Under the pieces are notes generated by a model that ran no database searches, was not told where the DNA came from, and saw only the letters and a program-made list of their open reading frames with translations. 64,000 nucleotides of DNA, taken from the NCBI GenBank assembly GCA_022711115.1, contig JAKLFP010000010.1, positions 14,330 to 78,329 of the forward strand, given 5' to 3'. Shown here piece by piece: positions 41,998 to 63,686 of this stretch. Numbering within the stretch: the stretch's first letter is position 1; each line of letters starts with the position of its first letter. Position numbers and translations under genes: made by a program. This DNA is from Candidatus Omnitrophota bacterium (GTDB taxonomy: Bacteria > Omnitrophota > Omnitrophia > Omnitrophales > Aquincolibacteriaceae).

Positions 41998-43581
41998 ATG
42001 ACTGACACCGGGGAAAAGGGAAAATCCGAGAACGAATTTGTTGTCAAGGCAAGCCGGATCTTGCTGGCCAAACGCTGGCAGGTGCTCCGTCTGATCACGC
42101 AGGTCCAGGACTATTCCCGCTATATGCCCAACGTGAAAGAGTGTAAGGTCTTGAGCCGCAATCGCAATCGCGTCGTGACTCTTTGGAAAGTCGAGATGGG
42201 GAGGATCCCGATCTCCTGGCAAGAAGAAGATACCTTGGACTTCCGGGATTTCCAAATTCACTTCAAAACCATCGATGGGGATCTGGAGAAATTCGAGGGC
42301 TATTGGAAACTCCAGGAGCATCCTTCGGGAGGTACCGAGGTTTTTGTGGAAGCGACCATCCGTCTGGGCATTCCCATCGTTGAAAATATTGTCGGGGGTA
42401 TGGTCGCGGAACGGGTCAAAAAGAATTTAGAAGCCATCCTCCGGGCTTTCGAAGAAGCCCTCACGGCCCGCCGTTATCAAAAAATCCGTTCCCGAGGCAG
42501 TCATGATATCAAAGGTTTTGGGGTGATCGGTCATCCTTACAATTTGAAGCATCTTGTCCAATACCTTAAATCCTTCAATCCGGCAATGCGGGTCCCGTCG
42601 CCGGAATTTCTTTCGAAAGTTTTTGAATTGATGCCGTCTTATGTGACGCATGAAATTAAAAAGTTCCAGGCGGCGAGCGGGAAAAATGTCCATGGCTCTT
42701 TCATCATGTGCAATATCATTCCCGATATGCTGGATAAGGATATCGAGCAAGTCGTCCGCAAAGTAGTGGAATCCTGCAAGGTGGCGGAAAAACTCGGCCT
42801 GGGCATCGTTGCGCTCGGAGGGTTTACTTCGATTGCGGGTGAAAAATACGGCGATCAGTTTCGACAACTTATCAATGTCCCGGTGACAACCGGGAACACC
42901 CTGACGGCTGCCATGGCGGTCGAAGGTGTCTTGAAAGCGGCGCGTTTGCGGGGTTTAGATCTTTCCCAAGCCAAGGTGACTGTGATCGGGGGCGTTGGCG
43001 ATATCGGAAGTGCCTGTGCTCGTTCTTTTGCGCGCAAAGTTAAAGAGATAACCATTACAAGCCGGAGTGCCGAACATCTTGAAAAAGCCCGCTTCATGCT
43101 GGACGGTTTTCCCGCTAAATTTTCCGGCAGTCACGACAATAATGCGGCCGTGCGGGATGCGGACATCGTCATTGCCGCCGCGAGCGCGTCGCAATCGATT
43201 GTGGAGATCTCCAGTTTTAAGTCAGGGGCCATTGTGTGCGATATCGGCTATCCAAAAAACATCGCTTACGCCGATACGGATCGAGAGGACATTCTTATTT
43301 TTGCGGGCGGGATTTGTTCCTTGCCGCAGGAATTGAATTCGGGTTTTGATATCGGTCTGCCTTCTTCCAAGGTACTCTACGGCTGTTTCTCGGAGGCCAT
43401 TGTCCTTTCCCTGGAAGAGCGTTACGAGAATTATTCGTGGGGAAAAGGCAATATCACCGAGGAAAAGATGGCGGAGATCCTTGCCATGGCCCGCAGGCAC
43501 GGTTTTGAGCTGGCGCCCTTTTTCTGGGGGCACCGGCAATTGAGCGACGAAGAGATTCAGGCCATTAAGGTAAAATCATGA
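41998..43581 (+). CDS. SRPBCC (polyketide-cyclase/START-like) domain fused to an acyl-ACP reductase (AAR)-like NAD(P)H-dependent domain
   Basis: N-terminal 140 aa has a Polyketide_cyc2-like pattern. C-terminal about 340 aa shares a run of motifs with cyanobacterial AAR as I recall it: GVIGH, ALGGFTSI, TTGNT, VIGGVGDIGSA, DIGYPKN, YGCFSEA and YSWGKGNITEEKMAEILAMARRHGF. No search was run. Confidence 0.65.
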   Translation: MTDTGEKGKSENEFVVKASRILLAKRWQVLRLITQVQDYSRYMPNVKECKVLSRNRNRVVTLWKVEMGRIPISWQEEDTLDFRDFQIHFKTIDGDLEKFEGYWKLQEHPSGGTEVFVEATIRLGIPIVENIVGGMVAERVKKNLEAILRAFEEALTARRYQKIRSRGSHDIKGFGVIGHPYNLKHLVQYLKSFNPAMRVPSPEFLSKVFELMPSYVTHEIKKFQAASGKNVHGSFIMCNIIPDMLDKDIEQVVRKVVESCKVAEKLGLGIVALGGFTSIAGEKYGDQFRQLINVPVTTGNTLTAAMAVEGVLKAARLRGLDLSQAKVTVIGGVGDIGSACARSFARKVKEITITSRSAEHLEKARFMLDGFPAKFSGSHDNNAAVRDADIVIAAASASQSIVEISSFKSGAIVCDIGYPKNIAYADTDREDILIFAGGICSLPQELNSGFDIGLPSSKVLYGCFSEAIVLSLEERYENYSWGKGNITEEKMAEILAMARRHGFELAPFFWGHRQLSDEEIQAIKVKS

Positions 43582-43691: not shown

Positions 43692-46157
43692 ATGACAAAC
43701 ATCATGCATGTTTTTGAACTCAACTTCTATGCCGTGCCCCTTGTCGTGGTCGGGCTTCTGATGTTTCTGACCGGGCTTTACATTTTTCTCCACAACAAAC
43801 ACTCCCGCGCGAACTTCTCCTTTTTCCTGATCTGCCTTTGCGGTCTTTTTTGGTTTTTCGGAAATGCCGCGACCTATTCGGCGCGCACGCCGGAAGCCGC
43901 GCTCGCTTTTTACAGGGCGGTCACGTTTTTGGGCGTGGCCCTGATCGCGCCCTGTGTTTATTATTTTTCCGCAAGCTGGTTGAATCTTTTTGATAAGCAA
44001 AAGGCCGGCGTGCGGACCGCGCTTTTCTTGGGGGCTGCTTTTTATATTGTAGGGCTTTTTTCTCCAAGAAGTTTCCCCGGCGTCCGGCATTATTTTTGGG
44101 GCTACTATCCGGTCTATGGGCCGCTGAATTACTATTTTCTCGGCTATTTTTATCTGGTGCTGGCCAATGCGTTCTATAATTTTTTCAGGGCCTATTTCAA
44201 AGAACCGCGGGGTGTTCGCCGTACCCAGATCCGATTGATCACGCTCAGCTTTGTGGTGGCCTTTTTCAGCTCGCTTGATTATCTGCCGAAGCTGCTCTCT
44301 TATCCGGTTTATCCGCTGGGTTTTCTCCTCGTCTTTTTGTGGATCCTGATCGTGGCCTACGCCATCATCAAATACAGGGCCATGGATATCGAAACCGTGG
44401 TCCACAAGACCTTGATGTGGCTGGCCACCTCGGCGGTGGCGGTGGTGCCGTTCCTGGCAGTGATCTACGGGTTTGAAAAGATCCGGAATCCTTCCTCGAA
44501 CTTGCTTTCGACACTTTATTATTTTACGGTTTCGATCGCTTTTTATTTTTATTTCCGGGCCATCCAGCCGCGGCTGGACCATTGGTTCCAGCGCCGGCGC
44601 ACGAACCTGCTGGCGATTCTTGAGCAATTCTCCAAGGAGCTCGTGCATTTGAAGAACCTGCGCGACCTTCTGCAAAACTTCGCCCGCATGCTCCGGAACA
44701 AACTTTTTGTCCGCAGGCTTTCGGTCTACCTGTTGGATGAGAAAAAAGGGGAGTTTGTTCCCGCGATCGCCAAGGGGCTGCGCAGCTTAAAACCCTTTCC
44801 CAAGGGGCATCCCTTTTTTTCGTGGCTCGAGAAAACGGATGCCGTGGTGGTTGGGGAACTTGTGCTGGCGGATCCCTCCGTCGAAACGTTCAAAAAAGAA
44901 TTAGAAGATTATTTTCAGGCAACCCAATCCTTTTTAAGCGTGCCCTTTGTGCTCGGCGGGAAATTGATCGCCCTAGCGAACCTCGGCAAAAAAGCAAATC
45001 TGCGCCGGTATGGTTTTGAAGAAGTCCAATTTTTCGCCAAACTGAAAGCGCCGCTTACCATTGCCTTTTCGAATTCCATGCAGTTTGAGAATATTTCCGA
45101 ACTTTACAACCAGGTCCGCAAGATGAGCGAAGAACTGAAGCAATGGAACATCGAGCTGGAACAGCGCGTGGAAGATCGGACGCGCGAGTTGGTGAAAACC
45201 CAGGACCAGCTAGTGCAGGCCGAAAAACTCGCGACGCTCGGCACGCTTGCCGGCGGCGTGGCGCATGAGATCAACAATCCCTTGACGGCAGTTCTGACCA
45301 ACGCGCAGATCCTCAAAATGACGGCGGACGAAGATGTCCGGGAATCGCTGGACCTGATCGAGGAGGGCGCGAAGCGGTGCCAGCAGATCGTCCAAAAGCT
45401 CATGAAATACGCGCGTAAGACCGCGGAAGAGGCGCCGCACAAGGAAGTGGATCTGAATGAAGTGGTGCAAGGGACGTGCGCGCTTCTGGGGTTTCAATTT
45501 CAGCAAGAGAATATCGAGATTGAGACCAAGCTGGGCCAGATCCGCCGCGTGATGGGAATCGGCAATGAGCTGGAGCAGGTGCTTACGAACCTTCTTGTGA
45601 ACGCCCGGGATGCCATTAAGTCCAATCCTCAATCAAAAGATTTAAAGGTTAATGGGACTAGTCCTGGCAACCTTCAGTCAGAAGAAGATAGATGCCAGGG
45701 CAAATCCCATTCTCCATCAAAAGATTTAAAGGTTAATGGGACTAGTCCTGGCAACCTTCAGTCAGAAGAAGATAGATGCCAGGGCAAATCCCATTCTCCA
45801 TCAAAAGATTTAAAGGTTAATGGGACTAGCCCTGGCAACCTTCAGTCAGAAGAAGATAGATGCCAGGGCAAGTCTGCAAGAAGCCAAGGCCGGATTGTGG
45901 TCGAAACCCGCGGGAAGGGAGCCATGGTGGAACTTGTGGTCACGGACAACGGCATCGGTATTCCCAAAGGAAACCTCAAAAAGATCTTCGATCCCTTTTT
46001 TACGACCAAAGAGGTCGGTTCCGGTACTGGGTTGGGGCTTGCGGTCAGTTACGGCATCCTGAAGCGGCATAATGCTTCCGTGAGCGTTGATTCTTCGCCC
46101 GGCAAAGGTACTACCTTTGTGCTTTGCTTTCCCCGAAAGCAACAAGGTGAATCATGA
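43692..46157 (+). CDS. sensor histidine kinase (7TM N-terminal sensor, GAF-like, HisKA, HATPase_c) carrying an in-frame 3x28-aa repeat insertion
   Basis: 7 TM helices N-terminally; H-box [13 protein letters not shown]; N-box [10 protein letters not shown]; G-boxes DNGIGIP and GSGTGLGL. Three copies of [28 protein letters not shown] lie between the N box and G1 box. Confidence 0.85.
45633..45884 (+). repeat. 3 x 84-bp near-perfect in-frame tandem repeat inside the kinase ATP-binding domain
   Basis: Units start at about 45633, 45717 and 45801. A single T/C difference (actagtcct vs actagccct) separates copy 3 from copies 1-2. Confidence 0.9.
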
Positions 46158-46199: not shown

Positions 46200-46255
46200 T
46201 TAAAAATTCAAAGGTTAATTGGACTAGCCCTGGTGACCTTCAGTTAGATGAAAAA
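46200..46255 (+). repeat. diverged partial copy of the 84-bp repeat unit in the intergenic region
   Basis: caaaggttaattggactagccctggtgaccttcagttagatg aligns to the intragenic unit aaaggttaatgggactagtcctggcaaccttcagtcagaag at about 80 percent identity. Confidence 0.6.
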
Positions 46256-46319
46256 AAACAGGGGCATAACACTACCTTCACGCTCCGGTTTCCTGCGGCT
46301 CATTCATCCACCCAAAAGT

Positions 46320-47807
46320 ATGAATCCGTATAATTTTTCCATTTTGTGCTTTGGTTTTTGTTCCCTCCTCTTGGGACTTTTTGTCTGGCTCAAACGGCAG
46401 GATCGTGTCGGCCAATTGTATTTTGTGTTGTCTTTTTTTTATGCTGGTTGGGCGCTGCCATTTTCTATAAAAATCAGTGATAATATTTCCTATGCTGCGG
46501 CGTTATACGCAGCACGCATGGCGAATTGTTCCGCGGCATTTATCCCAACTGTTTGGCTTCATTTTTGTTTGGTTTATACCAAAAGAGATGAAACCCATAA
46601 AAAAATACTTAAACTTTTTTACGCAATACCGCTGCTCATTCTTGCTGTTTCTTTTACACCGTGGTTTGTCCCGGGGCTCAGACCTATTCTCAGTTTTAGA
46701 CACTATGCAACCCCGGGTATTTTTTATTATTTGATGACATTGAATTATTTTATAGTTATTCCGCTGGGCTTTAACCAGTTATTTGACAAGATGAAAGAGG
46801 TTTCAAGAGAAGAAAGGGAACAACTTTTAGGACTTTTTTTCTCGGCCTTTATTGGCTATTTGGGAGGCGCCTTAACTTTTTTGCCGATCTATGGCATTTC
46901 ATTCCCTCAAGAAGGTATGTTTCTGTTGCCGATTTATCCCTTTGCTCTGACGTACTTTATGATTAAGCAGAAGATCTTCGACATCGAGGAGTTGGCCCAG
47001 GCGGCTCATCGGGACAAGTTAACAGCGATCGGGGTTTTGGCGGCGAGCATCAATCATGAGATCAAAAATCCGCTTTTTATTATCAAGGGACTCGCGGAGA
47101 ATTGTCTGGAGCGGCAAAAGGAAGGTGTTTTTTCCAATAAAGAAAAAGCCCTGGAGAGCGCCAACGACGCGATGAAAAGGAGCGTCGAGCAAGCGGACCG
47201 GGCGATGGATATCATCCGTAGGTTGTCGCTTTTTGCCAAGGCCGGGATCGACAGTGAGATCAAATTCGAGTTTGTGAAGATCGCGGAAGTGCTTGAAAAT
47301 ATTTTGCCGCTGATCCGTTATGAACTAGCAGCGAAAAATATCGTACTGACCCGTGACATTCCGCCCAATATTCCCGAAGTCCGCGCGGACCGGCGTTATC
47401 TTGAGGAGATTCTTTTCAACCTGCTAGTGAATGCCTGCCAGGCTGTCAGGGAAACCGGACGGGAAGGGGAGATCAAAGTGACCGCGGCCGTCATTGCGAG
47501 GGAACGAAGCGACCGAAGCAATCTCCCAATTCCGGACCTTAATAAAACGGGATCGCTGCGGCCCAAAAATGGCCTCGTGATGACAACTCCTGACAAGGTC
47601 CTTATCACGATCCAGGACAACGGCCCCGGGATCCCTGAAGATAAAATCAAAGACGTTTTCCGCCCCTTTTACACCACCAAAGCCGAGGGCACCGGTCTAG
47701 GTCTTTACATCACCAAACAGCTTGTTGAAAAAATCGGTGGACGGATATCTGTTGAGTCCCAGCAAGGCATTGGCACGACTTTTAAAGTTATCCTGAAGGC
47801 AGCCTGA
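46320..47807 (+). CDS. sensor histidine kinase (7TM N-terminal sensor, HisKA, HATPase_c), paralog
   Basis: Start set at MNPYNFSILCFGF by analogy with the next paralog. H-box LAASINHEIKNPL; G-boxes DNGPGIP and GTGLGLYI. Confidence 0.85.
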   Translation: MNPYNFSILCFGFCSLLLGLFVWLKRQDRVGQLYFVLSFFYAGWALPFSIKISDNISYAAALYAARMANCSAAFIPTVWLHFCLVYTKRDETHKKILKLFYAIPLLILAVSFTPWFVPGLRPILSFRHYATPGIFYYLMTLNYFIVIPLGFNQLFDKMKEVSREEREQLLGLFFSAFIGYLGGALTFLPIYGISFPQEGMFLLPIYPFALTYFMIKQKIFDIEELAQAAHRDKLTAIGVLAASINHEIKNPLFIIKGLAENCLERQKEGVFSNKEKALESANDAMKRSVEQADRAMDIIRRLSLFAKAGIDSEIKFEFVKIAEVLENILPLIRYELAAKNIVLTRDIPPNIPEVRADRRYLEEILFNLLVNACQAVRETGREGEIKVTAAVIARERSDRSNLPIPDLNKTGSLRPKNGLVMTTPDKVLITIQDNGPGIPEDKIKDVFRPFYTTKAEGTGLGLYITKQLVEKIGGRISVESQQGIGTTFKVILKAA

Positions 47808-47810
47808 GCC

Positions 47811-49187
47811 ATGAATCCGTATAACTTCTCAGTCCTGTGTTTCGGTTTTTGCAGTTTGCTTCTCGGAATTTTCGTTTGGCTTAAGCGGCAAGATTATGTT
47901 GGGCGACTTTATTTTGCTTTATCCTTTTTTTATGCTGGTTGGGCAATTTTTATATCGATTAATCTTAATAATGACATTTCGCCGGACCTCGGTCTTCTTA
48001 TGGGGCGATTAGGGAATGGCTTTGCTATTTTTATTTCCATTATTTGGTATCATTTTGTTTTGGTTTATACAGGATTTATTGAAAAACATTACAAGTTGGT
48101 GAAGTTTTTTTACATCATCTCGATACTAACATTTTGTTTTGTGTTTTCACCTTGGTTTATTCCAAAGACAGCAACTATAGTTGGTTTTAAGCATTACTCG
48201 CAAGCTGGACCAATCCATTATTTTTTTTCATTCTTATTTTTCATTCTAGTCACACTAAGTTTTATTGAATTGCACCGGAAAATAAAGAACTCTTTCGGAT
48301 ATGAAAGAGCGCAATTCAAAGGACTTTTTTGGACAGCCCTTTTGGGGTATCTCGGAGGGAGTCCGGCTTTTCTTCCGATTTATGGGATTCCCATGCCCCA
48401 ATATTGTCTCTTTTTAATGCCCCTTTATCCATTCATGTTGGCTTACTTCATGACCAAACAAAAACTCTTCGATGTGGCGGAATTGGCCCAAGCGGCGCAT
48501 AGGGATAAACTTTCGGCAATTGGTTTATTGGCAGCCAGTATAAATCACGAGGTCAAAAATCCATTATTTGTCATTAAAGGCATGACAGAAACACAGTTGG
48601 AACGTTTGCATGACCCGACGCAGTCAACAGAAAAGTTAAGAGAAATGCTAGAAAAAACCCTTCAGCAGGCGGATCGGGCGCTTGGAATTATTCGAAGCTT
48701 TTCTGAGTATGCAAAAAGGCAAAGCTCGCGAACATTCGATAAACAAATGCTCGATATTCGAGAAGTTATTGACAATATTATTCCGTTTGTGCGCAGCGAG
48801 TTGGCTTTGGACTCTATTCACCTAGAGTTGAATATACCGGCAAAAACCATGATCTGTGCGGACCAGCAATCCATGGAAGAAATCTTTCTGAATTTAATCG
48901 TGAATGCCTGCCAGGCGATAAAAAGCACTAATAAAACGGGTGAGATTGAGATTTCATCAGAGAAAGAAGATCCGTGGATCAGGATTGCAGTGCGAGATAC
49001 CGGGCCGGGATTGTCACAGGATCAGCTTTCAAGGATCTTTGAGCCATTTTACACAACAAAAGTATCAGGGACAGGCCTTGGACTTTATGTGGTCAAGCAG
49101 CTTGTCGAGAAAAATCAAGGCAGGATTGAGGTAGTTTCAAAGATCGGCGTTGGGACCACCTTTACCCTTATCTTTTCGCAACACTAG
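47811..49187 (+). CDS. sensor histidine kinase (7TM N-terminal sensor, HisKA, HATPase_c), tandem paralog
   Basis: MNPYNFSVLCFGFCSLLLGIFVWLKRQ is almost identical to the N-terminus of the preceding gene. H-box LAASINHEVKNPL. Noticeably lower GC than the upstream paralog. Confidence 0.85.
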   Translation: MNPYNFSVLCFGFCSLLLGIFVWLKRQDYVGRLYFALSFFYAGWAIFISINLNNDISPDLGLLMGRLGNGFAIFISIIWYHFVLVYTGFIEKHYKLVKFFYIISILTFCFVFSPWFIPKTATIVGFKHYSQAGPIHYFFSFLFFILVTLSFIELHRKIKNSFGYERAQFKGLFWTALLGYLGGSPAFLPIYGIPMPQYCLFLMPLYPFMLAYFMTKQKLFDVAELAQAAHRDKLSAIGLLAASINHEVKNPLFVIKGMTETQLERLHDPTQSTEKLREMLEKTLQQADRALGIIRSFSEYAKRQSSRTFDKQMLDIREVIDNIIPFVRSELALDSIHLELNIPAKTMICADQQSMEEIFLNLIVNACQAIKSTNKTGEIEISSEKEDPWIRIAVRDTGPGLSQDQLSRIFEPFYTTKVSGTGLGLYVVKQLVEKNQGRIEVVSKIGVGTTFTLIFSQH

Positions 49188-53541: not shown

Positions 53542-53577
53542 CTTTTGATTTATAACGAAACTCAGGAAAGCATCTCA

Positions 53578-55875
53578 ATGGCATTCTATATCCTGATAAC
53601 GGGACTTATTACCGCATCATATGCAGGCCTGGGCCTTTTCGTTTTTTTAAATGATCGAAGGAAATTTCTTTTTCGAATTTTTTTGTTATTTTGTTTGTCC
53701 GTCGCCTTATGGGCGTTTGGATATTTTATAACTCTCTTATCTCATATTACTTATCCAGTCGCAATTTTATCTAGCCGTATTTCGCATGCCATTGGGGCTT
53801 TTATTCCGATTACCTTTTTGCACTTTGTCTTGTCGTTTCTTCGCATTGATACTAATCATCGCCGACTTTTGCAAAACGGTTATATTGTATCCACAATTAT
53901 GTTCGGCATTGCACTAACACCATATGTGGTAAGCGATGTGGTGCAAAAGATGGATATTCGATTTTATCCCGAAAAAGGGTTATTTTATCCAATATATGCG
54001 GCGCTTTATTTGGTTTATGCGCTTGGATTTGCTCAGTTTTATCTATTTAAATCTTTTTTGAGCGCTACCGGAATTAATAAAAAGCGACTTCTTTTCTTTA
54101 TAGTTTCAACATTTGTAGGTTTTATCGGTGGTGTTTCGCTTTTCTTGCTAATATTTAATATTCCTGTTCCTCCTTATGCTAGTTCACTTATTGTAATTTG
54201 GCCATTTGCAATGGCGTATACGATTATTAAATATCGCGAATTTAATATAGAAGTTATTATTAAAAGGACATTGGTTTTTACTGGAGTTTTTGGTTCAATC
54301 ATTGGCATTGTTGCTATTGTGACAACACTTGCTCAAAATTATTTGGGGCAATATCTTGGTATAGGGCTGTTGGCGCGACAGATTTTTAGTGTTTTGATTG
54401 CCATCTTGCTTTTTGATCCGATTCGAAAACTGCTGATTAATCTCACGGACAAATACCTTTTTCAGAAAAAGTACGACTACCACAAGCTGCTCAAGGACGC
54501 GTCGCGGGGGATGTCGAACATCGAGAGCCTGGAGCGGTTGCTGGGTCTGGTCGTGCACTTCGTGACCATGAAGATGCGCGTGAAGAACGCGGCGGTGTTG
54601 ATGCGGGAAGGGGGCATGGATCAGTTTCATCTGGTGTATCAGCGCGGGTACGATAAAAAACACGTTGCCCTGACGCTCTACAGTAATGACCCGCTGATCC
54701 ATTACCTGGAGAATCATCAGGAGGCCGTGGACATCGAAAGGGTGAAAGAACAAGTCGAATCCGCCTCCCACCAGCGCGACAGAAGCGAGGTCGCGTATGA
54801 TTATGAAGCGATTCGCGAACGGATGATCCAGTTGCAGGCCAGCTGTTGCGTGCCGAGTTTTTTGGGCAAGGAGCTCAAGAATGTTCTTCTGCTCGGCGAA
54901 AAAAAATCCGGCGAATATTATTCCAACGAAGACCTGAATCTGCTTTACACGCTGGCGCAGGAATCCGCGATTGCGATCGAGAATGCCTGGCTTTATGATG
55001 AGGCCAAGAAAAAATCCCGAGAACTCGAACACATCAATGAGCAATTGGAACATTCCAAAACGCTTTTGATGAAAGCCTTGCAAGAAGCCGAAGGCGCGAA
55101 CAAACAGCTTCAGGACACACAGGCACAGTTGATCCACGAGCAGAAAATGGCGACCCTGGGCCGTCTGGCCGCGTCCGTGGGGCATGAAGTCAACAACCCA
55201 CTGACCATTCTGTCCATGAACGTGTCGCGCGTGATCCTCAAGTACCGGAAAAACCCGGATATGAAAGTGATCGAGATCCTGGATGTTTTTGACAAGATGG
55301 AAAAAAATATCGAGCGCATCAAAGCCGTGGTGAACACACTGACCGGGCTCCTCAAGAAATCCGAAAAAGGAAAATTCGAACCGCTGTCGCTCAAGCTGAT
55401 CCTGGAAGAAACCCTGCCGCTCGTGCAGTTCCAGACCTATCTGGACAATCTTTCGGGCACGGAAGTGGATTTCAACGTGCCGGGCAATATCCCGCTTATT
55501 CGCGGCGATCTGGAGCGTTTGCAGGAGGTATTTCTCAATCTTTTCATCAATGCCTATCATGCCATGGCCGGGAAGCGGCACCGCAAGATCGCGGTGGCTG
55601 CCGAGATCGACCCGCAGGACTCAAAGATGGTGGCGATCCATTTCAGGGACAACGGTTCGGGCATGACCGAAGATGTCATCAAAAAGGTCTTCAATTACGG
55701 TTTCACCACCAAACCGCTAGGCAAAGGATCAGGGCTCGGCCTGTATATGTGCAAGTACATCATTGAGCTTCACGGCGGGACGATTGTGGTGCAAAGCAAA
55801 GTCGGGGAGGGGACGACGTTCACGCTGACGCTGCCGATCTACGAGGAGTCTCCGGCGCTGAAGGCGCGAAGCTAG
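53578..55875 (+). CDS. sensor histidine kinase (7TM N-terminal sensor, GAF-like, HisKA, HATPase_c); compositionally chimeric
   Basis: ATG at 53578 with an AGGAAAG RBS; the ORF-track start at 53545 is a TTG. H-box LAASVGHEVNNPL; G-boxes DNGSGM and GSGLGLYM. GC jumps from about 35 to about 60 percent near nt 54450. Confidence 0.85.
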   Translation: MAFYILITGLITASYAGLGLFVFLNDRRKFLFRIFLLFCLSVALWAFGYFITLLSHITYPVAILSSRISHAIGAFIPITFLHFVLSFLRIDTNHRRLLQNGYIVSTIMFGIALTPYVVSDVVQKMDIRFYPEKGLFYPIYAALYLVYALGFAQFYLFKSFLSATGINKKRLLFFIVSTFVGFIGGVSLFLLIFNIPVPPYASSLIVIWPFAMAYTIIKYREFNIEVIIKRTLVFTGVFGSIIGIVAIVTTLAQNYLGQYLGIGLLARQIFSVLIAILLFDPIRKLLINLTDKYLFQKKYDYHKLLKDASRGMSNIESLERLLGLVVHFVTMKMRVKNAAVLMREGGMDQFHLVYQRGYDKKHVALTLYSNDPLIHYLENHQEAVDIERVKEQVESASHQRDRSEVAYDYEAIRERMIQLQASCCVPSFLGKELKNVLLLGEKKSGEYYSNEDLNLLYTLAQESAIAIENAWLYDEAKKKSRELEHINEQLEHSKTLLMKALQEAEGANKQLQDTQAQLIHEQKMATLGRLAASVGHEVNNPLTILSMNVSRVILKYRKNPDMKVIEILDVFDKMEKNIERIKAVVNTLTGLLKKSEKGKFEPLSLKLILEETLPLVQFQTYLDNLSGTEVDFNVPGNIPLIRGDLERLQEVFLNLFINAYHAMAGKRHRKIAVAAEIDPQDSKMVAIHFRDNGSGMTEDVIKKVFNYGFTTKPLGKGSGLGLYMCKYIIELHGGTIVVQSKVGEGTTFTLTLPIYEESPALKARS

Positions 55876-56055
55876 ACTTCAGACCACGGACGACAGACTA
55901 TAGACTGCAGACCCTAGATGGCAGATTTCAGAGCTGGAGGAAGTTGTCATTGCGAACGTTCCCCGCAATTCGTTGGACGAATCCGTCCGAGAAATTTGGC
56001 AGAAAGTGAAGCAATCTCGCAATATTCAGGCTTAAAGAATTAATAAAAAATAAAA

Positions 56056-56096
56056 AAGAGATTGCCATGCCATCAAAACGAGGCTCGCAATGACAG
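56056..56096 (+). repeat. hairpin repeat family copy A (GAGATTGCCAYGYC...CTCGCAATGACA)
   Basis: aagagattgccatgccatcaaaacgaggctcgcaatgacag, 9 nt upstream of the GIY-YIG start codon. Confidence 0.6.
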
Positions 56097-56104
56097 AGTA
56101 ACCT

Positions 56105-56386
56105 ATGTCAAAAAAAGGTTATGTTTATATTTTATCGAACTCTTCCAATACAGTTTTATATACCGGGGTAACATCAGATCTTTGGGCGCGAGTGGGTGAG
56201 CATAAACAAAAGTTAGTGAAGGGATTCACAAAACGGTATAATGTTACTAAGCTTGTCTGGTTTGAAGAATTTGGATCGATTCATGAGGCAATTGCGTCAG
56301 AAAAGAAAATAAAAGCAGGATCCAGAGCTAAAAAAATAAAATTGATTAAAACTCTGAATCCTGAATTTAGAGATTTAGCATTATAG
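56105..56386 (+). CDS. small GIY-YIG nuclease-domain protein (YhbQ/UPF0213-like)
   Basis: KGYVYIL...LYTGVT...FTKRYNVTKLVWFEEF is a GIY-YIG core; 93 aa. Confidence 0.8.
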   Translation: MSKKGYVYILSNSSNTVLYTGVTSDLWARVGEHKQKLVKGFTKRYNVTKLVWFEEFGSIHEAIASEKKIKAGSRAKKIKLIKTLNPEFRDLAL

Positions 56387-56390
56387 TTTT

Positions 56391-56433
56391 AAGAGATTGC
56401 CACGCCCCTCAAAACGGGGCTCGCAATGACAAA
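56391..56433 (+). repeat. hairpin repeat family copy B
   Basis: aagagattgccacgcccctcaaaacggggctcgcaatgacaaa, 5 nt after the GIY-YIG stop. Confidence 0.6.
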
Positions 56434-56479
56434 CAGGAGAAAAGTCGCAGTTTGTGGTTAGCGGTCTGGAGTTTTTAGT

Positions 56480-56836
56480 ATGAAAAAAATACTGATTGTG
56501 GATGATGAAGTCGGGATCGTGCAGGAGATCAAGGAATTCCTGACCGAAGAAGGCTATGACGCTTATACGGCGGATACAGCCAAGGAAGGGATCCGTCTGA
56601 TCCAGGAATTGAAACCGGATGTGGTTTTTATTGATGTGAAACTGCCGGATGCGTCCGGGATCGACGTGCTGAAGGCGTGTAAGGAAGAGTCTCCCAGAAC
56701 CAAGACCGTCATGGTGACGGGCTATGTGGATCAGAATTTGATGGATGAGGCCGAAGCGGTCGGGCGTGACGCGTTTCTTCAAAAACCTTTTGACCTTGTC
56801 CGCATCACCGAAGAAATCGAACGGTTGCTTGGCTAG
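56480..56836 (+). CDS. single-domain response regulator (CheY-like receiver)
   Basis: ILIVDDEVGIV...VVFIDVKLPDASG...K; 118 aa. Confidence 0.85.
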   Translation: MKKILIVDDEVGIVQEIKEFLTEEGYDAYTADTAKEGIRLIQELKPDVVFIDVKLPDASGIDVLKACKEESPRTKTVMVTGYVDQNLMDEAEAVGRDAFLQKPFDLVRITEEIERLLG

Positions 56837-56929
56837 ACTATAGGCCATCACTATAGACTGGAGACGGCAGACTGAGGCATGTCATCGCGAGCGAAGCGTG
56901 GCGATCTCCTGGCTATCGAAGTCGGTAAA

Positions 56930-57208
56930 ATGAAAAAAGGTTATGTCTATATTTTAGCAACTCCCTCCAACAAAGTTCTTTATACGGGCGTTACCGCAGA
57001 TCTTTGGGATAGGGTGACTCAACATAAAGACAAAACGGTCGAAGGGTTCACAAAACGTTACAACGTTACCAAATTGGTTTATTTTGAAGAATTCACATCC
57101 ATCATGGATGCGATCTCAGCGGAGAAAAAAATAAAAGCTGGATCCAGAGCTAAAAAAATAGAGTTGATTAAAACATTGAATCCTGCATTTAAGGATCTAG
57201 CGCAATAA
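56930..57208 (+). CDS. small GIY-YIG nuclease-domain protein (YhbQ/UPF0213-like), paralog
   Basis: MKKGYVYILATPSNKVLYTGVTADLW...FTKRYNVTKLVYFEEF. Start moved to the internal ATG to match its paralog. Confidence 0.8.
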   Translation: MKKGYVYILATPSNKVLYTGVTADLWDRVTQHKDKTVEGFTKRYNVTKLVYFEEFTSIMDAISAEKKIKAGSRAKKIELIKTLNPAFKDLAQ

Positions 57209-57210
57209 TT

Positions 57211-57253
57211 AGGAGATTGCCACGCCCTAAAAGACAGGGCTCGCAATGACAAA
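57211..57253 (+). repeat. hairpin repeat family copy C
   Basis: aggagattgccacgccctaaaagacagggctcgcaatgacaaa, immediately after the GIY-YIG stop. Confidence 0.6.
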
Positions 57254-57285
57254 AAGGGAAAAGCTTCAGACGGAGGTTTTCAATT

Positions 57286-57822
57286 ATGAATTTTATTCAA
57301 ACAGAAATTCCGGGTGTGATCCTGATCGAGCCCAAGGTCTTTCATGACCCGCGCGGCTTTTTTTATGAAAGTTACCGCAGAAAACTTTTCGCGGCCAACG
57401 GGATCAAGGACCATTTTGTCCAGGACAACATCAGCTCGTCGGCCAAAGGAGTTTTGCGCGGCCTTCATTATCAGATTGCGCCACGGGCTCAGGCGAAGCT
57501 GATGCGTGTGATCAAAGGGTCTGTTTACGATGTTGTTGTGGATATCCGGCCACGGTCCAAAACTTTCGGCAAATTTGTCGCGGTCACGCTTTCTGCGGAA
57601 AACAGAAAGTTACTTTATATCCCCAAAGGTTTCGCGCACGGTTTTTGCGTTCTGGAAGACGGCACGGAATTCATGTACAAGGTTTCGGACTATTATTCAC
57701 CCGAACACGAGCGAGGCATCCTCTGGAGTGATCCGGGTCTGGCGATCCCTTGGCCGAAGTTGGATCGCGCATTCATCCTTTCCGAGAAAGACAAAAAATA
57801 CCCTACCCTCAGCAGCTTATAG
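57286..57822 (+). CDS. rfbC: dTDP-4-dehydrorhamnose 3,5-epimerase
   Basis: Cupin RmlC motifs (FHDPRGFFYESY, RGLHYQ, DGTEFMYKVSDYY); 178 aa. Confidence 0.92.
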   Translation: MNFIQTEIPGVILIEPKVFHDPRGFFYESYRRKLFAANGIKDHFVQDNISSSAKGVLRGLHYQIAPRAQAKLMRVIKGSVYDVVVDIRPRSKTFGKFVAVTLSAENRKLLYIPKGFAHGFCVLEDGTEFMYKVSDYYSPEHERGILWSDPGLAIPWPKLDRAFILSEKDKKYPTLSSL

Positions 57823-57898
57823 CCGATAGCTCATGGACAATAGCTAATAGCTCATAGCTTTTAGCTATAAGCTAGAGTCTAGGGTCTCAAGTCTAGAG

Positions 57899-58330
57899 CT
57901 ATAGGTTTTCTTTCGGCGTGATATTCCAGTGATACAGGATTATGGAGGAACCTTGGGGGCCGATGTCGAGGGTGATTTGGGTTTCCGGTTTATCCTGAAA
58001 ACACATTTTGGAAGATTTTTGGCAGTAATAAATATCCGCCTTGAGCGCGAGGATGGCATGTCCCGGTCTTGTCTTGAGCGTGATCTTAAAAGTATTGCCG
58101 GAGAGTTTTGGCAATGGCTTCGGAATTTCAACAATGTCGGGATTGGCGGTCTGGCAGGCGATTGAATGAGGGGCCTGCGGGATGAGCTCGTAGCCCTTGG
58201 GAAGATAAAGCTTCACCGTTAAGGTTGTGTCTCCTTGCTGTACCTGAAAAGCCGTTGCCTCTGTCTGTGTGATTGACAGAAGCAACAGGAACAAACTTGA
58301 AAGGATGATTTTCCCGAAATATTTTTTCAT
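57899..58330 (-). CDS. secreted hypothetical protein
   Basis: Signal peptide MKKYFGKIILSSLFLLLLSITQTEA; 143 aa. Confidence 0.55.
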   Translation of the reverse strand: MKKYFGKIILSSLFLLLLSITQTEATAFQVQQGDTTLTVKLYLPKGYELIPQAPHSIACQTANPDIVEIPKPLPKLSGNTFKITLKTRPGHAILALKADIYYCQKSSKMCFQDKPETQITLDIGPQGSSIILYHWNITPKENL

Positions 58331-58480
58331 TTTAAGGAACCTTTAAAGTATTATCAATGGAATGAGAAGCTTTCTCAAGGAGAAAAACAACAGGCGACAG
58401 ACTGGCGACTCAAAGTCTGCCATCGCGAGCCGAAGGCGAAGCGATCTCTTATCAATGATTAAAATAATAAGGAATTAATA

Positions 58481-58533
58481 AAAGGAGATTGCCACGTCGC
58501 TCCTTTGGAGCTTCTCGCAATGACAAAATGACC
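58481..58533 (+). repeat. hairpin repeat family copy D (longer inner stem GGAGC/GCTCC)
   Basis: aaaggagattgccacgtcgctcctttggagcttctcgcaatgacaaaatgacc, upstream of the DUF167 gene. Confidence 0.55.
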
Positions 58534-58571
58534 GATTCCGTCTTCGCGAGCCAAATGCGGCAAAAGACGCC

Positions 58572-58802
58572 ATGAAGCTGACGATCAAAGTTAAAACGAA
58601 CGCTAAAGAGAACAGAGTAGAGAATACTGCGGACGGGGGATGGCGCGTTCTGGTGAAGGCCCCGCCGCAAGAAGGGCGCGCGAATGAAGCGGTCATCGAG
58701 GCGCTCGCGGGCCATTTCCGCGTTCCTAAAAGCCGGATTGCGATCATCGGGGGTTTCAAAAGCAAAACTAAAGTTGTTCGAGTCGGAGCGTGCGAGTGCT
58801 GA
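58572..58802 (+). CDS. DUF167 (YggU-like) family protein
   Basis: IKVKTNAKENRVE...VKAPPQEGRANEA...L...IIGG..S..K is a typical DUF167 pattern; 76 aa. Confidence 0.75.
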   Translation: MKLTIKVKTNAKENRVENTADGGWRVLVKAPPQEGRANEAVIEALAGHFRVPKSRIAIIGGFKSKTKVVRVGACEC

Positions 58803-58921
58803 TTTTTAGACCACAGACGGCAGACCACAGACAAGAGGCCCAACATCTCAAAAGAGCTTTCAGACTGCAGTCATCAGTCTGTAGTCTGATGGCAATAGTA
58901 TTTATGGTAAAATAGATTCAT

Positions 58922-63440: not shown

Positions 63441-63513
63441 GCTGGTGTAGCTCAGTTGGTAGAGCAGCTGTTTTGTAAACAGCGGGTCGGGGGTTCAAAT
63501 CCCTCCACCAGCT
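63441..63513 (+). tRNA. tRNA-Thr (anticodon UGU)
   Basis: Cloverleaf folded by hand: acceptor GCTGGTG/CACCAGC, D-arm GCTC-AGTTGGTA-GAGC, anticodon stem GCTGT/ACAGC with loop TTTGTAA, T-arm GGGGG-TTCAAAT-CCCTC. Confidence 0.85.
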
Positions 63514-63602: not shown

Positions 63603-63686
63603 GGGGAGTTGCCCGAGCGGCCAAAGGGGACAGACTGTAAATCTGTTGGCTTTTAGCCTTCAGTGGTTCGAATCCACTACTCCCCA
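63603..63686 (+). tRNA. tRNA-Tyr (anticodon GUA), type II with long variable arm
   Basis: Acceptor GGGGAGT/ACTCCCC, anticodon stem ACAGA/TCTGT with loop CTGTAAA, long variable arm, T-arm AGTGG-TTCGAAT-CCACT. Confidence 0.85.

Follow-up and report, generated by a model that had tools for sequence, protein, structure and literature searches.

Here, we describe an oriented hairpin repeat and two small GIY-YIG genes in a 64-kb stretch of DNA from an uncultured Omnitrophota bacterium, called the window below. Hairpin repeats had been reported here from the letters of the stretch alone (the original prediction), and these repeats are real. The four direct copies of that prediction were recovered as copies A to D, and nine copies were found in all, five on one strand and four on the other. 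Seven of the nine are packed into 2.6 kb and the remaining two are paired 8.4 kb upstream of them; by our summary count, eight copies cluster around the two GIY-YIG genes, whose products have 92-93 amino acids (aa). The matches that had been taken for partial and inverted turned out to be complete copies that face the other way, at 55945-56018, 56880-56908, and 58418-58450. A copy is called forward in the orientation in which it begins with GTC. The copies and the two genes are listed below, with bit scores and E values of the repeats from a covariance model.

47490-47585, both orientations: doublet of 96 nucleotides (nt) inside a kinase gene; its halves score 43.8 and 44.6 bits
55945-56018, + strand: forward repeat, TGTCATTGCGAACG...GAAGCAATCTC, with a structured loop insertion of ~49 nt, left half of a gene-less doublet with copy A; weak match at 55942-55975, E 0.13
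56058-56095, - strand (GTC-first reading): copy A, hairpin repeat; 50.5 bits, E 3.6e-11
56105-56386, + strand: ssnA-like gene 1, single-domain GIY-YIG protein of 93 aa; PF01541, E 9.4e-16, residues 4-78
56393-56431, - strand: copy B, hairpin repeat directly 3' of gene 1; 55.6 bits, E 1.5e-12
56880-56908, + strand: forward repeat, TGTCATCGCGAGCGAAGCGTGGCGATCTC, left end of the gene 2 unit; 42.7 bits, E 4.2e-9
56930-57208, + strand: ssnA-like gene 2, single-domain GIY-YIG protein of 92 aa; PF01541, E 1e-13
57213-57251, - strand: copy C, right end of the gene 2 unit; 54.2 bits, E 3.6e-12
58418-58450, + strand: forward repeat, TGCCATCGCGAGCCGAAGGCGAAGCGATCTC, with GCC replacing GTC, left half of a gene-less doublet; 46.2 bits, E 4.8e-10
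58485-58525, - strand: copy D, right half of the gene-less doublet; 44 bits, E 1.9e-9

Copies A to D share a left arm, GAGATTGCCAYG, and a right arm, CTCGCAATGACA. The latter occurs four times exactly in the window, and GAGATTGCCACG occurs three times exactly and twice with one mismatch, while an exact 12-mer is expected by arithmetic about 0.008 times by chance in 128 kb (both strands). When up to two mismatches were allowed, the two 12-mers matched 15 and 13 times, as compared to 5.0 and 5.7 times in shuffled sequences, and none of the 100 shuffles equalled these counts. The covariance model, which was trained on eight copies and scanned over all 64 kb with filters off, recovered its eight copies (E 1e-9 to 1e-12) and the interrupted copy at 55945 (E 0.13); it found no other copy in the window and none in the first 47 kb. 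One further candidate, at 43168-43196 (GTCATTGCCGCCGCGAGCGCGTCGCAATC, inside the open reading frame (ORF) 41998-43581), carries the outer arms of the repeat but was not recovered by the model and was dropped; it probably arose by chance or is a copy in an advanced state of decay. A looser palindrome search, for GTC followed by any arm starting with A, proved too permissive.

The forward consensus of the window copies is Y-GTC-ATYGC-GAG-(variable stem-loop)-NNN-GCRAT-C-TC. The arrangement of YGTC, an arm starting with AT, an arm ending with AT, and a final C is present in eight of the nine copies, the exception being the 58418 copy with its GCC. In the predicted fold, an outer stem of 5 bp (ATTGC/GCAAT) is separated by a small internal loop, which is asymmetric, from an inner stem that varies but is paired in each of copies A to D (GCCCC/GGGGC, GCCCT/AGGGC, GCC.TC/GA.GGC, and GCTCC/GGAGC); the predicted folds thus bear out the earlier claim that the inner stems differ and yet stay complementary. 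In the 56880-56908 copy the loop contains GCGAAGC, as the loops of short copies often do (23 of 327 elements in the sample of other genomes introduced below). GCGAAGC is known to form an exceptionally stable DNA mini-hairpin, with a GAA loop closed by two G-C pairs, and such a loop would fit a structure that serves as DNA and not as RNA.

Two layouts are found in the window, namely units in which inward-facing hairpins enclose a gene (hairpin -> gene <- hairpin) and gene-less -> <- doublets, of which there are three. Along the + strand, the cluster starts with the forward copy at 55945, a 39-nt AT-rich spacer, copy A, GIY-YIG gene 1, and copy B; a receiver-domain gene, the forward copy at 56880, GIY-YIG gene 2, and copy C follow; then come rmlC, a minus-strand gene, the forward copy at 58418, a 34-nt AT-rich spacer, copy D, and a DUF167 gene. 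Around gene 1 stand 55945-56018 (+) and 56393-56431 (-), plus one more copy at 56058-56095, and gene 2 is bracketed by 56880-56908 (+) and 57213-57251 (-); in both cases, the 3' hairpin begins no more than 6-7 nt past the stop codon. Copies A to D precede start codons because each is the right-hand end of a -> <- unit lying in an intergenic gap, at distances of about 9, 48, 34, and 46 nt, which replace the earlier estimate of 5-40 nt. The three doublet spacers showed only a weak AT-rich similarity when aligned (...TTAA..TAAAA...), too weak to support the idea that the doublets are copies of each other or deletion derivatives of a gene-bearing unit. In assemblies of the same or a near-identical organism, the gene order around the GIY-YIG genes was the same, with no empty sites.

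The proteins of genes 1 and 2 are 75% identical, and the gene copies lie 0.8 kb apart. A domain search of both proteins returned nothing besides PF01541, an NCBIfam search gave no meaningful match, and a sequence search of the PDB yielded marginal matches to UPF0213 alone. The gene 1 protein is identical to the database entry P0003, which is named Candidatus Omnitrophota, and the exact or near-exact entries for both proteins carry this name. The catalytic Y, Y, and E are invariant across 22 homologs of the window proteins. The longest ORF for gene 2 begins at 56879, within the upstream hairpin (MSSRAKRGDLLAIEVGK...), and this start was taken by the gene caller in locus L081, giving a product of 109 aa; the alignment of homologs favours the ATG at 56930. 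N-terminal extensions derived from the repeats, as in P0078, are probably common annotation artefacts.

Tandem arrays of 7-nt units also lie in this region (AGACTAC x5.6, AGCTAAT x7.7, CTAGAGT x3.9, and AGACCAC x3.6). They occupy 55873-55918, 57814-57898, 58808-58886, and also 56837-56878, are found nowhere else in the window, and begin at or just past the stop codons of the kinase, receiver, rmlC, and DUF167 genes. Two of the arrays, those after the kinase and receiver genes, sit in short intervals that precede the forward copies at 55945 and 56880, and these two intervals align with each other.

The association between repeat and gene was evaluated in 80 loci (L001-L080), picked by protein homology alone with one genome per species, which span Planctomycetota, Chloroflexota, Cyanobacteria, Bacteroidota, Patescibacteria, Gammaproteobacteria, Acidobacteriota, and others. 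By eye, the homologs are flanked by GTCATTGCGAG...GAAGCAATCT upstream and AGATTGCTTCG...CTCGCAATGAC downstream. A generic search, for GTCAT, a 5-nt arm counted from its AT, a loop of at most 70 nt, the complement of the arm, and then C, found 327 elements in these loci (437 kb), as compared to 16.6 in shuffled sequences. A forward copy lies within 200 nt upstream of the GIY-YIG gene in 50 of the 80 loci and a reverse copy lies downstream of it in 63, with both flanks occupied in 45. The ATTGC arm accounts for 227 of the 327 elements, and ATTCT, ATCCT, ATTCC, ATCGC, ATTAC, ATGGC, and other arms also occur, each with its own complement. In these other genomes, 90 adjacent pairs are inverted and 41 are tandem. 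Across phyla, the GTC and C flanks are conserved and the loop varies; a T or C stands at position -1 in 39 and 38 of 44 units, and repeat cores are near-identical in very distant phyla.

Two of the loci carry further repeat classes. In L055 (96-216 and 1428-1473), from Bacteroidota, ATTGC-class repeats at the ssnA-like gene occur together with Neisseria-type repeats, GTCATTCCCGC...GCGGGAATCCAG, one of which carries a long insertion, itself structured, in its loop; this one genome may thus hold two specificity classes. L040 (190-1239), from Microcoleaceae, has an ATGGC-arm class with loops of ~50 nt, and two of the four loops listed contain GCGATCGC, the cyanobacterial HIP1 palindrome.

Since the generic search itself demands complementarity, a separate and unbiased half-site test was added. 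When TGC arms were set aside, 71 of 150 GTCATNNNGA sites had the complement of their own arm, and then ATC, further downstream, while permuting the arms among sites gave a mean of 2.7 and a maximum of 7. In a model alignment of 150 hits, 92.4% of the cells are paired, as compared to 81.6% in shuffles, and changes on both sides of a pair are found in 101 cells, as compared to 30.2. The covariation score is 0.232 against 0.081 in shuffles, a value reached by none of 500, and it falls to 0.016-0.053 when the pairing partners are slid. Among the inner segments, 27% are more stable than 95% of their own shuffles. Because the stem positions covary in both the half-site test and the model alignment, the hairpin is under selection; selection on its structure is real, as the compensatory changes had led the original prediction to propose.

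The layout found here closely resembles a system that was described in 2025. SsnA of Neisseria meningitidis is a single-domain GIY-YIG protein of 94 aa (cd10448) that binds the NTS hairpin repeat (CGTCATTCCCGCGMAVGCGGGAATCYRG) solely as single-stranded DNA (Chenal et al. 2025, Nat Commun 16:2388; PMC11893778). It cuts a few nt 5' of the motif and does not act on the reverse strand, duplex DNA, or RNA; cutting depends above all on the three bases ahead of the palindrome and binding on the C just behind it, while the loop is dispensable and can be extended (PMC11893778). Tyr6, Tyr17, and Glu64 are the residues that were mutated, and the role of SsnA in Neisseria is to restrict incoming single-stranded DNA, with a bearing on natural transformation (PMC11893778). 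Homologs of SsnA, defined by E < 1e-10 to the N. meningitidis protein or by assignment to cd10448, occur in many phyla, with Ssn-related motifs (SRMs) on both sides in an NTS-ssnA-NTS arrangement that the authors likened to insertion sequences and REP/RAYT (PMC11893778). The main text of that paper mentions neither Omnitrophota nor the ATTGC arm class, and a literature search for the literal repeat strings returned unrelated primer matches alone.

We linked the window proteins to this family through canonical NTS/dRS3 pairs in metagenomes, which were scanned for GTCATTCCC-N8-GGGAATC in inverted pairs 300-330 nt apart. At least 120 loci were found, 93 of which hold an ORF of at least 70 aa, and 85 of these 93 proteins match both window proteins over the full length (E 1e-16 to 1e-31, median identity 48-49%), with E down to 2e-31 for gene 1. 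For example, locus L085 encodes a 94-aa protein with Y6, Y17, and E64 that is flanked by CGTCATTCCCGCGAAAGCGGGAATCCAT, and its flank matches the NTS consensus at 27 of 28 positions. The gene 2 protein is 49% identical to it (E 2e-29), and Y7, Y18, and E65 align to Y6, Y17, and E64.

Taken together, the hairpins in the window are very likely SRMs, that is, DNA hairpin sites recognised by two adjacent GIY-YIG nucleases homologous to SsnA, as judged from sequence comparison. What we obtained here is the anatomy of the repeats, their association with the gene across phyla, the covariation of the stem, and the homology to NTS-flanked proteins. As in the SsnA/NTS system, a single-domain GIY-YIG protein of 92-94 aa, with catalytic Tyr, Tyr, and Glu at equal spacing, is encoded by a gene that is flanked on both sides by an oriented hairpin in inverted orientation, with extra copies nearby. 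The repeat also follows the NTS plan of Y-GTC, a palindrome starting AT..., a free loop, a palindrome ending ...AT, and C. In contrast to NTS, the arm in the window is ATTGC or ATCGC and not ATTCCCGC, and it is followed by a conserved GAG and a longer loop that is often self-paired. The host, an uncultured Omnitrophota bacterium, and the two gene copies side by side also differ from the published Ssn loci. Of the three roles considered in the original prediction, the one closest to the evidence is that of targets or ends of a small unit tied to the GIY-YIG genes.

Several observations weigh against this assignment. The published SRM string, HGTCWYN(0-2)YYVSBRHN(0-5)WNVSBRGN(0-2)RNCYNB, matches the NTS consensus and 85 of 119 5' elements of the canonical NTS pairs, but it has 0 matches in the window and matches 3 of the 80 homolog loci, none of them adjoining the gene; the ATTGC/ATCGC class, the commonest among these homologs, is outside the formal search of the paper. 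The protein link to SsnA runs via the NTS-flanked metagenomic proteins, and the folding z-scores of single copies are modest with DNA parameters (+0.8 to -2.7). To our knowledge, natural transformation, the setting of the role shown in Neisseria, is undocumented in Omnitrophota. The published string is a search device and not a definition, and the determinants that underlie it are present here: the flanking is inverted, the HGTC and C flanks are found, and the stems change in a compensatory way, with the string itself being the feature that is missing. The system is already known; new here are a repeat class, GTC-ATTGC...GCAAT-C, that escapes the published string, and a case of insertion polymorphism in a kinase loop, which is described below.

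By analogy with SsnA, the repeat would fold into a hairpin whenever its DNA becomes single-stranded during replication, repair, uptake, or transfer. The enzyme would then bind the hairpin and also the unequal bases that border the palindrome (Y-GTC at its 5' end, C at its 3' end), and would cut the strand a few nt 5' of the GTC, while the complementary strand, double-stranded DNA, and RNA would be non-substrates. On the + strand, cuts are predicted just left of 55946, 56881, 47490, and perhaps 58419, where the GTC is mutated to GCC and the site may be bound without being cut; on the - strand, they are predicted just right of 56094, 56430, 57250, 58524, and 47585. Because the repeats flank in inverted orientation, the predicted cuts fall just outside every -> <- unit, on opposite strands. 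The inner stem-loop could vary and yet stay paired because it occupies the free loop position, which tolerates extension. Single-strand specificity, the position of the cut, and a role in restricting incoming single-stranded DNA are what we infer from the work on SsnA (PMC11893778).

The pair upstream of the cluster lies inside a gene. In this doublet, 47490-47585, the forward half (47490-47523, or 47489-47525 in its wider limits) and the reverse half (47549-47585) are separated by a 25-nt spacer, and the whole is in frame within the HATPase_c domain of the histidine kinase ORF 46320-47807, where it is translated as 32 additional residues, VIARERSDRSNLPIPDLNKTGSLRPKNGLVMT. Two kinase paralogs in the window are without this segment. 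Among orthologs at 60-83% identity, many are empty at the loop, which sits after GEI(K/R/V), and others carry translations with the signature of the repeat (VIAS..., ...GLAMT). Four of these orthologs are given below.

L208, 67% identity: loop empty
L205, 72% identity: another doublet, with 7 nt between its halves, the right one of which closely resembles copies B and C
L206, 72% identity: opposite arrangement (<- ->)
L207, 83% identity: the doublet of the window and an additional half copy

There is therefore presence/absence and arrangement polymorphism at one site, and doublets that differ or are missing at one loop of orthologous kinases suggest mobility. NTS copies are rarely intragenic (2%, PMC11893778), while in the window one doublet is translated within a kinase. 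Paralogous HisKA_7TM kinases are arranged in tandem in the window (46248-49187 and 53545-55875) and in L081 (1-3083 and 7474-9771), and the doublet is present in one of these tandem kinases alone. The GEI codons just upstream of the insertion site, GAGATC/GAGATT, resemble the GAGATYGC end of the repeat.

Other explanations of the hairpins can be weighed against the same observations. The presence of a hairpin no more than 6-7 nt past each GIY-YIG stop codon would suit a transcript end or an mRNA-stabilising structure for the nuclease genes, that is, a terminator without a T-tract. This reading is improbable, as there is no T-tract, the sequence after copies A to D is A-rich, and none of the copies scored as an intrinsic terminator, a result that excludes intrinsic terminators, in line with the earlier view that they are not ordinary terminators; a scan of the window for terminators and promoters found nothing on the hairpins. 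The element is also found upstream of genes in the other orientation and as gene-less pairs, and its asymmetric GTC/C flanks, conserved across phyla, would be needless for a terminator. Even less likely is a cis-regulatory RNA in the 5' untranslated regions governing the downstream GIY-YIG gene, receiver, rmlC, and DUF167 genes, as the original prediction had suggested from copies A to D lying 9-48 nt upstream of start codons. The RNA folds of three of these copies are indeed stable (z-scores -2.2 to -3.9), and the stems covary, but four more copies face the other way, two paired copies lie within a coding sequence, and the downstream genes are functionally unrelated. Across the 80 genomes, the repeats track the GIY-YIG gene on both sides in inverted orientation and not the next gene, and SsnA does not bind the RNA form (PMC11893778). 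A comparison with Rfam gave no family for the hairpins: with Rfam 15 at gathering thresholds, the whole window returned two tRNAs alone, and at E <= 1 nothing was found on the hairpins in 55800-58800. It is most improbable of all that these are REP/BIME-type palindromes serviced by a RAYT (Y1) transposase encoded elsewhere, with the GIY-YIG genes as bystanders. Imperfect palindromes in inverted doublets, mostly intergenic, are what such a system would show; however, the enclosed genes are GIY-YIG (PF01541) and not Y1 transposases, 45-63 of the 80 homolog loci, in many phyla, show this enclosure again, and seven window copies lie within ~2.6 kb around the two genes, with none in the first 47 kb. 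REP/BIME thus holds as a fair analogy for these repeats but not as a family to which they belong, since the gene they flank encodes a GIY-YIG nuclease and not a RAYT. In REP/REPIN-RAYT as in the window, an enzyme gene is bracketed by inverted imperfect palindromes, the palindromes are dispersed as inverted doublets, and the hairpin would be recognised in single-stranded DNA; the enzyme differs, being a GIY-YIG nuclease and not a HUH/Y1 transposase, and no joining chemistry is known for a GIY-YIG enzyme.

A more serious question is whether the units and doublets are active mobile elements, similar to insertion sequences with miniature derivatives and moved by the GIY-YIG nuclease in parallel to REPIN/RAYT or IS200/IS605, an idea that was put forward for Ssn units as a hypothesis (PMC11893778). 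Terminal hairpins in inverted orientation, a second gene copy at a distance of 0.8 kb, the occurrence of gene-less doublets in the window, and the excess of inverted over tandem pairs elsewhere (90 and 41) all favour it. So do the kinase doublet, with orthologs 67-83% identical that are empty, hold a different doublet, or show the opposite arrangement, and the near-identical repeat cores in very distant phyla. On the other side, target-site duplications in 44 complete units did not exceed chance as compared to permuted controls, GIY-YIG enzymes have no known strand-transfer or ligation activity, and the unit encodes no second enzyme. The predicted cuts are on opposite strands, unlike those of IS200/IS605, and presence or absence among orthologs could also be explained by deletion between arms or by recombination. 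We therefore regard active transposition as a possibility of lower probability. It is very probable that new sites have gained and lost units and doublets, given the polymorphism of the kinase insert, the doublets, and the near-identical cores in distant phyla; active transposition is held as a separate and less certain claim because no target-site duplication was found and no joining activity is known. As a tentative extension, -> ssnA <- units and doublets could constitute a separate class of mobile elements, with a bare GIY-YIG single-strand nuclease as their driver. They would insert repeatedly, in frame and stop-free, into a tolerant surface loop of the ATP-binding domain of histidine kinases and so remodel proteins, and the ATTGC class would be dominant across Bacteroidota, Cyanobacteria, Planctomycetota, Patescibacteria, and others. 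If true, such elements would parallel REPIN/RAYT in function while using a chemistry unrelated to it.

Apart from the reading of the hairpins as SRMs, the repeats and proteins can be compared with other known systems. The Rickettsia palindromic elements, which Ogata et al. are said to have described in 2000, are reportedly short palindromic repeats lying in frame in genes and translated as extra surface loops, with orthologs reportedly existing with and without the insert. The kinase doublet is similar in being in frame and translated, with orthologs with and without the insert. A link between the window repeats and these elements is possible. Rickettsia is among the genomes with >300 SRMs (PMC11893778). 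As in I-TevI-type homing endonucleases, a GIY-YIG domain here comes from a small, patchily distributed genetic unit. The homing enzymes have a separate DNA-binding domain and cut duplex DNA at the intron-less allele, whereas the window proteins have nothing beyond the catalytic domain and their relatives act on single-stranded DNA alone. UPF0213/YhbQ proteins (PDB 1zg2, 1ywl) are likewise small single-domain GIY-YIG proteins of about 95-107 aa, but the match is marginal (E 0.002-0.009), the subfamily is different, and hairpin repeats are not reported for them.

Elsewhere in the window, an 84-nt unit is repeated x3.0 in tandem at 45621-45871 (97% identity, TRF score 474), and tRNA genes are located at 63441-63513 and 63603-63686.

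With these results, a sequence (GTCATTGCGAG...GCAATCTC and relatives) that is widely repeated and usually left without annotation can be placed in a system with known biochemistry. The published motif string under-detects this system, as the ATTGC arm is carried by 227 of the 327 hairpins and almost none were found by the string. For annotation, the hairpins should not be labelled as riboswitch-like leaders or terminators, and ORF extensions such as VIARE... and MSSRAKRGD... are spurious products of the repeat. At a single kinase loop, the independent doublets offer a concrete, testable case for the mobility that had been a hypothesis before (PMC11893778). By analogy with SsnA, the nucleases and their hairpins may also offer a new specificity class of single-strand-specific nuclease/site pairs as enzyme tools.

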